This document shows, piece after piece, positions 31,344 to 35,970 of a DNA stretch of 64,000 nucleotides. The stretch is from assembly GCA_965262915.1 (NCBI GenBank), contig OZ253564.1, forward strand, positions 4,576,001 through 4,640,000, given 5' to 3'. This stretch comes from Candidatus Spongiisociaceae bacterium. GTDB lineage: Bacteria; Actinomycetota; Acidimicrobiia; Spongiisociales; Spongiisociaceae. The notes below the pieces were generated by a model. That model had not been told where the DNA came from. It searched no databases and worked only from the letters and a program-made list of their open reading frames with translations. The translations under genes were made by a program, and so were the position numbers. Each line of letters opens with the position of its first letter. Within the stretch, counting starts at the first letter, position 1.

Positions 31344-32123
31344 ATGAACAATCCGACCCCGCTCTGGGTTTCCGGCCCGGAATCCACTTCAGGGCCGGCT
31401 GCTTCCGAGCCCTCCTTCGAGACCGTCGAAGAGCTCCGGGCCTACAGGAAGCGGGTACTCGTAACCGCCTACCGGCTGTTCGGCGCCTTCGGATGGGGGT
31501 CCCTGGGTGACGGGCACATAACGGTTCGCGACCCCGAGCAGACCAACGCGATGTGGCTCATCCGCCACGGTGTCCCTTTCCACAGGACCACGACCGACGA
31601 TCTGGTCCTGGTAGGGCCTGACGGGAGGGTGGAAAGCACGCATGCCATCAACATGACCGCCTACTACATCCATGCCCCGATACATGAGGCCCGGCCCGAG
31701 GTCGTAGCCGTGGCCCATACCCACACCCCGTACGCCACGCCGTGGGCCGCCAACGTGGAGTACTTCCGGATGATCTGCCAGGAGGCCACGGCCTTCTTCG
31801 AGGACCACTCCATCTTCGACGGCGAGGAGGTCCAGGTCGCGGACTTCGACACCGGAAAGCGGATCGCCGCCGCCCTCGGGGAGACCAAGGCGGTCCTGCT
31901 TCGTAACCACGGTCCGCTGACGGTGGGATACTCCGTGGAGGAGGCAATCGGCTGGTTCCTGCTCCTCGAACGGGTGGCCGAGGTTCACGTGAAGGCCCAT
32001 CGCGCCAAGCCGATCAGCGACGAGGCAGCCCGGATCGCCACCACCGAGATAGGGCACGTCGGCATGGCGCTCAACGCCTTCGAGTACGCGGTGATGTCCA
32101 AGCTGGCCGACCCGCACGTCTGA
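31344..32123 (+). CDS. Class II aldolase/adducin family protein
   Basis: GHITVRDP, IHAPIHEARP, AHTH, LRNHG. Confidence 0.9.
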   Translation: MNNPTPLWVSGPESTSGPAASEPSFETVEELRAYRKRVLVTAYRLFGAFGWGSLGDGHITVRDPEQTNAMWLIRHGVPFHRTTTDDLVLVGPDGRVESTHAINMTAYYIHAPIHEARPEVVAVAHTHTPYATPWAANVEYFRMICQEATAFFEDHSIFDGEEVQVADFDTGKRIAAALGETKAVLLRNHGPLTVGYSVEEAIGWFLLLERVAEVHVKAHRAKPISDEAARIATTEIGHVGMALNAFEYAVMSKLADPHV

Positions 32124-32178
32124 GAAGGCCCTCGAAACAGGGGATAGCGCATACCTGCCGCCAACGGCGCGGCCACCG

Positions 32179-32352
32179 TTACTAAAGCGAACCACAGAGC
32201 GCTTCACTAGCTCAGGCGCCAAGTAAAGGCCGCTTTAGTTAGACCCCACGTAACTAAAGTCAAATGGGAGAAGCTTTACTAAGCAGGCCACGTATTCAAG
32301 TCCTCTTTAGGAGAGCACACCCCAAGTAAAGCAATCCCCACAAAGCTTTATT
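32179..32352. repeat. Phased array of ten alternating TAAAG/CTTTA boxes (72-bp period) upstream of fic
   Basis: Boxes start at 32183, 32202, 32224, 32233, 32255, 32274, 32296, 32305, 32327, 32346; spacers 14,17,4,17,14,17,4,17,14. Confidence 0.9.
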
Positions 32353-32390
32353 AAGCTCCATCGTGTACCCCTCCTGAGAAAGGTATCACC

Positions 32391-33557
32391 GTGCACCCAG
32401 ACGCCTTCCGCTCCACAGAGCGCGGCACGGTCCGGATGACGCTCCGTGGGTACCGGGCGTTCCATCCAAATCGCTTGCCCCGCCGGCTCGACCTGCCGCA
32501 GGAGGTCGTGAAGATGTTGGAAGAGGCGACCGGCGCCGTCCACCGCCTCGGCGGAATCGGACTGCTGCTTCCGAACCCACATCTGCTCATCGGCCCTCAT
32601 CTCCGGATCGAGGCCGTCCTGAGTTCACGGATCGAAGGAACGAAAACCGACATTCCTCAACTCCTACGGCTGGAGGCGGGACAAGCGCCAACCGAAGCGG
32701 ACGACTCGCGCGAGGTCGCCAACTACGTGGTGGCCATGGAGCATGGACTCGAGCGGGTACGCGAGGGGTTCCCGATATCGACGCGGCTGCTGTGCGAGAT
32801 GCACGAGCTTCTGCTAACCGGTGCCCGCGGCCAGTACCGCCGCCCAGGCGAACTCCGTACCACTCCCAACTGGATCGGCGGCACGACGCTCGAAAACGCC
32901 GTGTTCGTCCCTCCGCCGCCGGAGGAGATGGGGGAAGCTCTAACCGACTGGGAGTACTTCCTGCACGAACAAGACATGCCGCTCCTGGTGCAACTCGCCC
33001 TGGCTCATTACCAGTTCGAAGTGATCCACCCCTTCCTCGACGGCAACGGCCGGATCGGCAGGATGATGATCCCCCTGATGCTCGTGCTGCGGGGCGCCCT
33101 CACCCAACCTCTCCTCTACCTGTCCGCCTTCTTCGAGCAACACAGGGACGAGTACTACGACCTCCTTCTCCGTACCAGCCAGAACGGCGATCTGCTGCCC
33201 TGGATCCGGTTCTTCATGCACGGTGTCCGGCACCAAGCCCGCGAGGCCGAGGAGCGAACGATCAGACTTGTGAGACTTCAACACGCGCTCCGCGACGATC
33301 TCATCAACAAGAAACGCGCCCCCTCCGTCATCAGGCTCGCGGAACACCTCTTCACCTTTCCTCTCGTAACCGCTTCGTGGGCTGAGAAACTCTTGGGCGT
33401 AACCCGACCCACAGCCCACGCCGCCATCGAGGCCCTCGTCGAGCGGGGCGACCTCATCGAGGTCACCCACCGGAAACGCAACCGGATCTACGAAGCCCCT
33501 CGTATCTACGAGGCGGTGTACGGACCGATCGAGCAGGAGAACACGGCCGATCGATGA
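32391..33557 (+). CDS. Fic family protein with N-terminal inhibitory motif and C-terminal HTH
   Basis: HPFLDGNGRIGR active site; SSRIEG; AEKLLGVTRPTAHAAIEALVERG..EVT..RNRIY wHTH; GAAAGG RBS. Confidence 0.93.
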   Translation: MHPDAFRSTERGTVRMTLRGYRAFHPNRLPRRLDLPQEVVKMLEEATGAVHRLGGIGLLLPNPHLLIGPHLRIEAVLSSRIEGTKTDIPQLLRLEAGQAPTEADDSREVANYVVAMEHGLERVREGFPISTRLLCEMHELLLTGARGQYRRPGELRTTPNWIGGTTLENAVFVPPPPEEMGEALTDWEYFLHEQDMPLLVQLALAHYQFEVIHPFLDGNGRIGRMMIPLMLVLRGALTQPLLYLSAFFEQHRDEYYDLLLRTSQNGDLLPWIRFFMHGVRHQAREAEERTIRLVRLQHALRDDLINKKRAPSVIRLAEHLFTFPLVTASWAEKLLGVTRPTAHAAIEALVERGDLIEVTHRKRNRIYEAPRIYEAVYGPIEQENTADR

Positions 33558-33619
33558 CCCCCTCGGTCGCCCGAGTGCCGCTCTGCAGAGCGTCGCACGC
33601 TCCACAGTGCCTCAAACAC

Positions 33620-34393
33620 CTATGGCACGGTGAAGGTCAGCGAGTACTCGCCGTTGACTGTCACGCTGAAGGTCTCACCGGTGACCAGCGAGTTGCCGAG
33701 GGAGACGATGCCGTCGAGTTCCAGGTTCTTGTCCGAGCAGTCGATAGCCCAGGGAGCAGGCGGAGGAACCCACGCCGTCACTGCAACATCGACAACCAAG
33801 CCATCGACGGTAGCCTCCTCACGTCCCCGCTGGTAGCAACCGTCGATATCGGATACGAGGTAGACAACACGGACGAAGGCTTCGTCACCTTGCCAGATCA
33901 TGTGGACATCGGTGACGGAAACAGCCTCCTCGACCGGCGCCCGGTCCGCGGCGCTCCATTCACCGTCCACCATGTGCGGCGGCGGCTCGACCATCGCCAG
34001 CACGATGTTCACCTTGCCGGGATTCCCTCGGGTGATGACGTCATACGCGGTGTCGTTGATGAACGCCAAGCGACCGTCCGACTCGTCGATCCGTGCTGAG
34101 ATCGAGTAGGTGCTACCCGGATCGATGTCCCCTCGGTGGTACGGGACCTTGAACTTGATCGGAACCTGGCCCGGATCCGAGATGACCTGTTCGGCGATGA
34201 GTTGCGCCGGGGCGTCCATGTAGGAAGTGTCGCGAAGTTGCACCGTCAGGGTGGCGCCGGGGGTCAGGGAGATCCGCTCCCGGTAGGTGATCGTACCTTA
34301 GACCGATGCCTCACCATCGAAGACAGCGACGAAAGCCAGGATCAGGCCGATCCCGATGCCGGCCCGCAGGATTGTCTTGCCCTTGATCCTCAT
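33620..34393 (-). pseudogene. YbaY-family protein with a premature in-frame TAA
   Basis: MRIKGKTILRAG...EASV*GTITYRERISLTPGATLTVQLRDTSYMDAPA; TAA at 34298-34300. Confidence 0.8.
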
Positions 34394-34594
34394 CTCTGCG
34401 ACCTCCTTGGAGTCCGACAAGCGAGCCAGCCTCGGATTGGACGCCTACACCCCTACGACGCTTTCGACCGCGCTCTGGTTCCCCGGGAGCCGAATTGGCT
34501 GGGATGGATAAGGCAAAGAGTCCACTCATCAGTGTGCACCCGAAGGCCACCGAAGGAGTTCCCTGAGACCGCTGAGGGTTTTCGAAGGTTTCCT

Positions 34595-34671
<77 letters not shown>

Positions 34672-34683
34672 TGCCGGTCGAGT

Positions 34684-35970
34684 CTACCCGACTGCGGCGA
34701 GGGTGTTGTCCGGGCCCGGCGTCCTGCGTACCCTGATCTTGGATATCCGGCGACGGTCCATCACCAGCACGGTGAACACCAGATCCCGGTAGTCCACCCT
34801 GTCCCCCACCTCCGGAATATGGCCCGACAGGTACAGGAACAATCCGGCCACCGTCGAGTAGGGACCATCATCGACCGCCGCGCCGGTAGCTACCTCGAAC
34901 TCGTCGATCGGGGTTCGCCCGTCGGCCAGCCAGGTGTCACTGCCCACCGGCAGGGTCATCGGAACCCGCGGGTCGTACTCGTCCTGGAGTTCCCCCACCA
35001 GTTCCTCGACCAGATCCTTGATGGTTACGAGGCCGTCCACACCGCCGTGCTCGTCCATCACCACCGCTATGCCCGTTCGGCGGGCTCGAAGGTCATGGAG
35101 TACCCGCATTACCGGGGTGCTCTCCGGGGCATAATGCGGCGCCCGCAGGAGGGCCATTATCTCGTCCTCGGCCAGATCGCGGCTCTGGCTGAGGACATCC
35201 TTGGCGTAGAGGATCCCGCGGATGGAATCCAGGTCGCCCTCGTCGCTCACCACCGGGTACCGGGAGTGCGCCGTGCCGGCCACCGCCTCCCTGACCGCCG
35301 TGGAGGTCACCGGCACCGAGAGGGTGACGATGTCCACCCGGGGGGTCATCACATCGCGGACCGGCTGGTCGGCGGTCTCGAACAGGCGCTCGATGATCTC
35401 TCGCTCCACCGACGCGATCTCGCCCCTCCGCTCGCCGAGTATGGCCAGGGCCCGGACATCGGCCAGCGTTATGCTCCGGTCACCGGATGGCGGGAGCCCG
35501 AACAGCCGGATTATCCCCCTCCCGAGGCCGATGAAGACCCGCGATATGGGTCGCAGCGCCACCGCCAGCATCCAGACAGGAACGGCCGCGATGAGCCCGT
35601 ACCTCTCCGGGTAGCGCGCCGCCAGCGTCTTGGGGGTCACCTCTCCGATCACCAGCACCAGGATCGTCACGACCACCGTCGAGAGGATCGTTCCCCAGCC
35701 CTCACCCACCAGGCTGATGGCGACGGCGGCGGCCACCGAGGTGGCCAGGATGTTGACGAAGTTGTTAGCGACCAGAATGGTTCCGATCGACCCTTCGAGG
35801 TCGCGTACCAGAGCCTCGAGGCGGCGCCCCCGCCTCCCCGTCTCCGCCAGTTGATGGATGCGCTCCCTCGGGACCGCGGTCAGTGCGGTCTCGCTGCCCG
35901 AGAGGAAACCGGATGACAGCAGGCAGATACCGAACACCACCAGCAGGACCAGGCGAAGGGAGGCGATCAT
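34684..35970 (-). CDS. HlyC/CorC (CNNM-CBS) family protein
   Basis: SGSETAL, GEVTPK, VMTPR, HSRYPV, DEHGG..GLVT.KD..EE.VGE. Confidence 0.92.
   Translation of the reverse strand: MIASLRLVLLVVFGICLLSSGFLSGSETALTAVPRERIHQLAETGRRGRRLEALVRDLEGSIGTILVANNFVNILATSVAAAVAISLVGEGWGTILSTVVVTILVLVIGEVTPKTLAARYPERYGLIAAVPVWMLAVALRPISRVFIGLGRGIIRLFGLPPSGDRSITLADVRALAILGERRGEIASVEREIIERLFETADQPVRDVMTPRVDIVTLSVPVTSTAVREAVAGTAHSRYPVVSDEGDLDSIRGILYAKDVLSQSRDLAEDEIMALLRAPHYAPESTPVMRVLHDLRARRTGIAVVMDEHGGVDGLVTIKDLVEELVGELQDEYDPRVPMTLPVGSDTWLADGRTPIDEFEVATGAAVDDGPYSTVAGLFLYLSGHIPEVGDRVDYRDLVFTVLVMDRRRISKIRVRRTPGPDNTLAAVG

Follow-up and report, generated by a model that had tools for sequence, protein, structure and literature searches.

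A phased ten-box array as the putative operator of a stand-alone SoFic-type Fic gene

The stretch of DNA analysed here (64,000 nucleotides of contig OZ253564.1 from a Candidatus Spongiisociaceae bacterium, hereafter the window) carries an array of ten short alternating boxes directly upstream of a gene, here called fic, for a class II Fic enzyme of the SoFic family. The spacing of these boxes recurs upstream of homologous genes, including some in other phyla, and the array appears to be a cis-regulatory operator of this stand-alone gene. It is considered probable, at about 0.7, that the Fic protein binds the boxes with its own C-terminal winged helix, that occupancy of the promoter-nearest palindrome represses the gene and that the four palindromes further upstream add cooperative sites. 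Binding, repression, cooperativity and the pairing of two boxes by one dimer are all what we infer from comparison of sequences.

The array occupies positions 32183-32350, within the region (32179-32390) between the stop of an aldolase gene and the GTG start of fic, a region whose G+C content is 0.49-0.56 compared with about 0.65 in the surroundings. It consists of ten 5-base-pair (bp) core boxes that form five palindromes, is not assigned to either strand and has a period of 72 bp. Boxes 1 to 5 start at 32183 (TAAAG), 32202 (CTTCA), 32224 (TAAAG), 32233 (CTTTA) and 32255 (TAAAG), and boxes 6 to 10 at 32274 (CTTTA), 32296 (TCAAG), 32305 (CTTTA), 32327 (TAAAG) and 32346 (CTTTA). Their orientation alternates strictly, the spacers measure 14, 17, 4, 17, 14, 17, 4, 17 and 14 nucleotides (nt), and boxes of the same orientation lie 41 and 31 bp apart by turns. 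Three of the palindromes are of an N14 type, namely palindrome 1 (boxes 1-2, 32183-32206; TAAAG-N14-CTTCA, with one mismatch), palindrome 3 (boxes 5-6, 32255-32278; TAAAG-N14-CTTTA), which contains the symmetry centre of the layout at 32266/32267, and palindrome 5 (boxes 9-10, 32327-32350; TAAAG-N14-CTTTA), which is nearest to the promoter and ends 40 nt before the start codon. The other two are of an N4 type: palindrome 2 (boxes 3-4, 32224-32237; TAAAG-GCCG-CTTTA) and palindrome 4 (boxes 7-8, 32296-32309; TCAAG-TCCT-CTTTA, with one mismatch).

The original prediction, made from the letters alone, had described ten alternating boxes with these spacers and, within them, four palindromes of the form CTTTAnT-N13-AnTAAAG. 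All ten boxes were recovered at their positions with the spacing exact. Allowing at most one mismatch, the longer palindrome was matched four times in the window against 0.00 expected from 100 shuffles, and these four sites are the sole matches in the whole genome of 5,055,038 bases. TAAAG and CTTTA occur 398 and 491 times in that genome, and the exact combinations TAAAG-N14-CTTTA (two copies), TAAAG-N4-CTTTA (one) and CTTTA-N17-TAAAG (two) are found there in the array only. The array is real and far beyond chance.

Comparison in register distinguishes the boxes clearly from what lies between them. The first and second 72-bp units of the window are identical at 18/20 box positions and at 18/52 spacer positions, in agreement with the differing spacers noted in the original prediction. 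A genome of the same genus has the same order of aldolase gene, array and fic, with the boxes and the spacing kept and the spacers different. Identity between the window and homologous loci is 37/40 for boxes and 45/87 for spacers at L017, 28/30 and 26/66 at L031, and 29/30 and 32/66 at L025. The array had been proposed not to be a simple variable-number tandem repeat, and this view is sustained, as boxes and spacing have been kept and spacers have diverged both in the window and between orthologues. The comparison supports the interpretation that the boxes behave as putative protein-binding sites under selection.

A younger stage is probably represented by locus L020, where three near-identical tandem 72-bp units with TCAAG/CTTGA boxes lie within the 330 nt upstream of a fic homologue. 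This array is apparently a recent expansion by duplication, and its near-identical units indicate that arrays of this kind lengthen when the 72-bp unit is duplicated in tandem. The array in the window would have grown in the same manner, selection having kept the boxes while the spacers drifted. At another locus (L015; G018:C1, from about position 1512 in the locus), TAAAG/TCAAG-type boxes and a direct repeat of about 72 bp were observed upstream of a stop-riddled fic homologue; this looks like a decaying fic copy whose operator outlives the gene.

For the family-wide survey 80 homologous loci were fetched and 79 upstream regions, that of the window included, were analysed. Matches with at most one mismatch were counted in these regions (23.6 kb) and in the rest of the locus sequences (403 kb). 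TAAAG-N14-CTTTA was found 66 times in the upstream regions, at 55 of the 79 loci, compared with three times in the other 403 kb; the figures are 65 matches at 45 loci compared with three for CTTTA-N17-TAAAG, and 18 matches at 14 loci compared with four for TAAAG-N4-CTTTA. No further gap length was comparably enriched in the 79 upstream regions. Chains built by these rules contain two to ten boxes, with ten in the window and at L036, eight at L017 and L073, and two to five in most homologues. Chains of at least three boxes extend from the proximal seed at 41/55 loci, as opposed to 5.7% with shuffled flanks, and chains of at least four boxes at 30/55, as opposed to 0.15%.

The order of the elements is as regular as their spacing. 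Neighbouring palindromes are always one N4 and one N14 (31 mixed quartets, with no N4-N4 and no N14-N14 quartet), and the middle gap of a quartet is 17 in 31 cases, 18 in three and none of the other gaps tested. At 45 of the 55 loci, 40-59 nt separate the end of the proximal palindrome from the start codon. The consensus of this palindrome is approximately TAAgTAAAGcAA-N8-TTtgCTTTAgTTAgnnT, with a conserved TAnnnT just past the right arm, and its flanks carry in the family consensus a CTTtC box 17 nt upstream and GAAAG-N4-CTTTC 17 nt downstream. The extended half-site consensus of the family is approximately TAAnTAAAGnaA. Judged from these comparisons, the array in the window is an enlarged form of a common, putative operator module.

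For the homologous loci that lack the N14 seed, an exact 5-mer search of the spacing grammar proved too strict and gave plausible arrays only at L018, L020 and L051. It was replaced by a mapping of 5- to 9-mer boxes, by which eight of these 24 loci were mapped. Eight 9-mer boxes of the form TTATTGACG were found at L093, with gaps of 14, 8, 4, 9, 14, 9 and 4, which correspond to 14/17/4 between 5-mer cores; the gaps are 9, 14, 9 and 4 at L094 and 9, 14 and 9 at L090, and an N14 pair only was mapped at L089 and L085. These distant homologues (44-47% identity) have quite different recognition helices and other box sequences with the spacing kept; those with other boxes belong to Zixiibacteriota, Deltaproteobacteria and Coraliomargaritaceae. 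The retention of geometry while the box sequence changes is what would be expected if the oligomer is conserved and its recognition helix diverges.

The association of the boxes with the Fic gene was also examined among relatives. In 41 related genomes there are 19 exact TAAAG-N14-CTTTA sites, and a reversed-pattern control gives 20. Thirteen of the 19 sites precede an orthologue (65% identity or more) by 24-98 nt; they come from eight of the 13 genomes that have such an orthologue. The other six lie elsewhere. No flanking gene family (open reading frames of at least 90 amino acids) is common to more than 7/80 loci, these seven being the syntenic set that includes the window, and no small downstream open reading frame is common to more than 4/69 loci; the Fic gene is the sole constant partner of the boxes. 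The tie between the boxes and a Fic gene with a winged helix-turn-helix, on which the original prediction was built, is thus upheld, with sites in the own genome confined to the array, no common neighbour, and the other sites of relatives at control level.

The recognition helix of the protein comprises residues 339-351 (33405-33443, plus strand) and starts with R339-P340-T341-A342. L019 and L020 are the only close orthologues in which P340 is replaced by Q, and their boxes are TCAAG/CTTGA, which prevail over TAAAG/CTTTA by 3:0 and 10:2 respectively. A search for phased palindromic arrays upstream of homologues, with a box sequence that follows the recognition helix, had been suggested as a check; such arrays were found, and the box sequence shifts where the helix shifts.

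Downstream of the array, TAAGCT at 32352-32357 (plus strand), 1 nt past box 10, is the likely -10 hexamer of the TAnnnT form, and GAAAGG at 32378-32383 (plus strand), 7 nt before the GTG start, is by inference the likely ribosome-binding site. Both motifs are present as originally claimed. Across 55 loci TAnnnT recurs at the same offset with frequencies of 0.73 (T), 0.82 (A) and 0.65 (T).

The gene itself (32391-33557, plus strand, GTG start) encodes 388 amino acids with Fic_N, Fic and C-terminal winged-helix domains. The Pfam matches to Fic_N (E 5.9e-22, residues 41-121) and Fic (E 4.2e-20, residues 128-231) are both over the curated cut-offs. The catalytic motif HxFx(D/E)GNGRxxR is present as HPFLDGNGRIGR at residues 213-224 (codons 33027-33062, plus strand), with H213, P214, F215, G218, N219, G220, G223 and R224 invariant among 62 sequences. 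The inhibitory-helix motif (S/T)xxxE(G/N) is present as SSRIEG at residues 78-83 (codons 32622-32639, plus strand), on the N-terminal side of the Fic core and within one chain, the class II arrangement, and S78, S79, I81 and E82 are invariant in the same set; both motifs had been read correctly from the translation. The PADLOC model for SoFic is matched with an E value of 2.4e-111 over residues 20-375, covering 353/361 profile positions, which gives the suggested link to defence a basis.

An AlphaFold2 model of the protein (predicted local distance difference test score, pLDDT, 91) has a C-terminus of the order helix-strand-helix-helix-wing, with helices at 311-319, 328-335, 339-351 and 370-377, and strands at 325, 356 and 367. 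The winged helix-turn-helix (HTH) thus covers residues 311-377 (codons 33321-33521, plus strand), a domain for which Pfam gives sub-threshold HTH matches only (HTH_13 with E 0.0017, MarR_2 and HTH_39). The nearest solved relatives by sequence are 7cb8 (E 3.7e-43), followed by 9vjc and SoFic (about 1e-33), and identity to solved SoFic is about 27%. Foldseek template modelling (TM) scores are 0.82 to the Mycobacterium marinum Fic protein 7cb8 and 0.75-0.82 to SoFic, both full-length, 0.61 to Coxiella Fic2 (CbFic2), and 0.53-0.61 to CccR/7xux, an entry which we take to be the CccR structure from its length and release date only. A homodimer is predicted with a score of 0.74 against 0.00 for the best control, with at least 96% of contacts shared between runs and a partner pLDDT of 84; the mark that it passes is attained by 20/30 solved homodimers and 1/23 single chains. 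The predicted interface (residues 32-59, 195-199, 236 and 287-294) is located outside the winged helix. As SoFic dimers have already been solved, this pass may reflect mere likeness to them.

Each box would be the half-site core for the C-terminal winged helix of the Fic protein encoded downstream, and dimerisation through the N-terminal helix, as predicted, would leave both winged helices free. Palindrome 5 lies directly against the likely -10 hexamer, so its occupancy would block RNA polymerase and repress transcription; by analogy with the experiments on CccR described below, the toxic enzyme would in this way repress its own synthesis. The four upstream palindromes would contribute eight more half-sites that face roughly the same way on the helix. 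From centre to centre, extended half-sites are about 20-21 bp apart for N14, about 20-21 bp for N17 and about 10-11 bp for N4, and since these distances are near whole helical turns all ten half-sites would lie roughly on one side. Several dimers could then bind side by side and cooperatively, making repression tighter and more switch-like.

The strict alternation of N4 and N14 suggests a four-box super-unit and a second protein-protein interface. A further proposal, which is regarded as rather improbable, is that the 14/17/4 alternation and the 72-bp period arise from a Fic assembly with two interfaces, either a dimer of dimers or a short DNA-templated filament. Its occupancy of the array would also hold the enzyme harmless, as a deAMPylase or autoinhibited, in the way that DNA acts on CbFic2; the array would then serve as a DNA 'antitoxin' for a SoFic enzyme that has no partner otherwise. 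If this were true, array length would set the threshold for free active enzyme, for instance if a phage infection or damage to the DNA were to displace or dilute it.

Several observations weigh against autorepression of fic through the array. The TAAAG-N14-CTTTA seed is absent from 24 of the 79 homologous upstream regions, some of which have variant boxes, and the mapping of 5- to 9-mer boxes found no clear grammar at L091, L092 and L084. Of 277 plasmid homologue records four were inspected, three being ambiguous and one only partly similar. The covariation of box and helix at close range is one evolutionary event, because L019 and L020 are kin, and at long range it is confounded with overall divergence. 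The sequences are compatible with a dimer on either the N14 pair, which is the best-conserved element, or the N17 pair, which has the only invariant spacing. The NCBIfam equivalog ProtAdlyltaseSoFic scores 157.6 bits with a cut-off of 550; taken with the PADLOC match, this makes the protein a member of the SoFic family, not an equivalog. A simple sigma-70 consensus scan of 31900-33900 gave zero promoter-like sites, so that it is family conservation, not a consensus match, that backs the -10 role claimed for TAAGCT; the two terminator-like sites from the promoter/terminator scan are at chance level. Contigs from RNA libraries (four runs) cover the aldolase gene only (31400-32077) and neither the array nor fic, and are uninformative on expression and start site.

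The boxes could instead be operators of a different, unlinked host regulator. Such a regulator is unlikely, even though the binding of the boxes by the Fic protein is putative, the boxes are conserved mainly in one class (Acidimicrobiia) whose members possibly share a host factor, and palindromes rich in AT are a generic feature of promoters. It would need to have a single target, since the own genome has no other sites and the non-fic sites of relatives are at control level. Moreover, the gene and its operator occur as a module in unrelated contexts, some of them beside apparent tRNA genes, the spacing grammar recurs with other boxes in other phyla, always before a homologue, and the change in the boxes follows the change in the recognition helix. 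It is also quite unlikely that the promoter-proximal palindrome alone is functional and that the upstream boxes are neutral leftovers of tandem duplication. The small number of boxes in most homologues (two to five) and the readiness with which 72-bp units duplicate, as at L020, fit such a history; however, the duplicated spacers of the window have decayed to 18/52 identity with the boxes at 18/20 and the spacing exact, the arrays at L017, L025 and L031 keep 93-97% of their box positions and 39-52% of their spacer positions, and strict N4/N14 alternation is found in non-duplicated operators too.

An action of the boxes in RNA, as a series of leader or read-through hairpins or as a processed repeat-spacer RNA, is highly improbable. 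The region does fold at -58.4 kcal/mol (z -2.52, with 3/200 shuffles as good), as would be expected of any palindrome array, but the N14, N17 and N4 pairings are mutually exclusive as hairpins, the variant boxes CTTCA and TCAAG break pairing with neither compensation nor wobble, and spacing by whole turns of the helix belongs to DNA. With the conserved TAnnnT placed after the last box, the transcript would begin downstream of the array. No Rfam family other than tRNA was matched: a search of 31500-35000 at a permissive threshold returned tRNA-Pro and a sub-threshold small-RNA match inside it, and none in the array. A structured RNA or CRISPR-like array was rejected on the lack of an Rfam match and on the boxes themselves, which are 5-7 nt long, inverted and upstream of the likely -10 hexamer. 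The processed RNA that the original prediction had offered as its less likely option thus finds no support in Rfam or in folding.

The central reading of the original prediction, an array of sites on which the winged helix of the Fic protein itself would sit, is probably right; the claim that this is not a described system cannot be kept as worded. In the accessible parts of the respective reports, autorepression has been published for CccR (PMC9755527), promoter binding for SoFic (bioRxiv 10.64898/2026.07.09.737422) and switching by DNA for CbFic2 (PMC10628234). CccR of Yersinia pseudotuberculosis is a Fic protein with a C-terminal HTH that forms a dimer with its DNA-binding helices 70.2 Å apart, footprints two 10-bp repeats 26 bp apart near -35/-10 and represses its own promoter, as evidenced by electrophoretic mobility shift assay, DNase I footprint, isothermal titration calorimetry and a lacZ fusion (PMC9755527, accessible part). 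The protein described here resembles it in overall build and in the widely spaced repeat at its own putative promoter, where a repeat palindrome adjoins the conserved TAnnnT of an inferred core promoter. The 20-21 bp step found here, about 68-71 Å of B-DNA, is also similar to the separation of the CccR helices. In contrast to the one two-repeat site of CccR there is an array here, and the two proteins are distant in sequence (E 5.4e-14) and in structure (TM 0.53-0.61). CccR is further a secreted effector of a type VI secretion system (PMC9755527, accessible part), whereas nothing here suggests secretion.

SoFic of Shewanella oneidensis forms dimers by way of its N-terminal helix, and only the dimer binds the 100 bp directly upstream of the SoFic gene; the enzyme AMPylates EF-Tu (bioRxiv 10.64898/2026.07.09.737422, accessible part); it is a stand-alone anti-phage gene (bioRxiv 10.1101/2022.05.11.491447, accessible part). 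The protein of the window shares with it the class II Fic_N-Fic-winged-helix build, the stand-alone gene and the predicted dimer through the N-terminal helix. It differs in the operator array, neither an array nor an operator sequence being described for SoFic in the accessible part of the published account. Wild-type EcSofic is reported to be so toxic that cloning required three lac operators, and a 47-amino-acid antitoxin, AS1, is encoded downstream of it (PMC12249575, accessible part). Unlike there, no small antitoxin gene of the AS1 type lies directly downstream of fic, where there is no room before a convergent gene 62 nt past the fic stop codon (33557). For CbFic2 of Coxiella burnetii (PDB 8cil), DNA-induced dimerisation switches the AMPylase to a deAMPylase, DNA is bound largely without sequence specificity and a host histone is the target (PMC10628234, accessible part). 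CbFic2 is likewise a class II Fic protein with a winged HTH and is a precedent for the coupling of DNA occupancy and activity; it differs in that the TM score is only 0.61 and that no operator array is described for it in the accessible text.

A literature search, with subscription journals outside it, found no multi-site or phased operator array for any Fic protein. Operators with several repeats are also known from regulators of toxin-antitoxin systems and of plasmid partition, such as the AbiEi operator and the arrays of omega and ParR repeats. There, a small DNA-binding domain occupies, cooperatively and in many copies, a set of short phased repeats in front of a self-regulated gene, the binders being separate antitoxins or adaptors of other folds. 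Unlike in those systems, the DNA-binding domain here is fused to the toxic enzyme, and alternating 14/17/4 spacing is, to our knowledge, not a feature of any of the three. Self-repressing Fic enzymes of the SoFic/CccR type are already known; what is new is an array in which as many as ten boxes alternate in phase, its 72-bp period and a grammar that extends across phyla.

Among single-gene anti-phage systems SoFic is one of the more common. On the silencing and release of this highly toxic enzyme, the accessible published record comprises one footprint (CccR) and one 100-bp binding fragment (SoFic). The locus and its relatives supply a testable operator grammar, with a half-site consensus, 14/17/4 spacing, a 72-bp unit and up to ten half-sites on one face. 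That this grammar is kept across phyla despite the change in boxes suggests that the oligomer sits on DNA in a conserved geometry. The natural pairs of box and helix would suit specificity swaps, and array DNA would be ready material for structures of Fic bound to DNA. Should occupancy control catalysis as well, this would be a new form of toxin control with no antitoxin protein; if not, the system would be a well-documented but ordinary cooperative autorepressor.

The genomic context of the locus is of a housekeeping nature (ask, asd, aldolase, tRNA-Pro), syntenic at 7/80 loci, and is not a defence island. The upstream gene (31344-32123) belongs to the class II aldolase family. A contig of run X1, probably an RNA library, ends at 32077 in the 3' end of this gene and continues into an A-rich tail unlike the genome, which may be an artefact or a polyadenylated fragment. 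The convergent gene downstream of fic (33620-34243, minus strand) encodes a protein of 207 amino acids with a YscW-type lipoprotein domain (Pfam E 1.7e-19) and no NCBIfam or PADLOC match, and a tRNA-Pro(CGG) gene is located at 34595-34671. At six homologous loci (L024, L029, L034, L038, L042 and L052), fic and its operator were observed about 200 nt past an apparent tRNA 3' end, which suggests from position that the module may also travel on tRNA-integrated islands.

Among plasmid-borne homologues, that on the Thermus thermophilus HB8 plasmid pVV8 (L096, 7321-8535; 45% identical) lies between helicase-related and DUF1156 genes, the latter overlapping its end, which gives it a multi-gene, defence-type look unlike the stand-alone gene here. 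The upstream grammar of Thermus, Haloarcula and Agrobacterium plasmid homologues is ambiguous, and TTATTAA palindromes with N17 and N4 gaps on a Rhodoferax plasmid lie in low-complexity DNA; no support was drawn from either. Orthologues of 71-73% identity at G019:C1:1959977-1961128 and G022:C1:549104-550255 each have one in-frame TGA. It was also observed that the own genome contains 16 Fic-protein matches (E 1.4e-77 to 1.4e-6 besides the gene itself), for example at C1:1536677-1537738 and C1:893897-894520. Just before several of these paralogues, the otherwise GC-rich DNA contains AT-rich palindromes of a different, individual kind, and these paralogues may be mutually insulated self-regulated copies.

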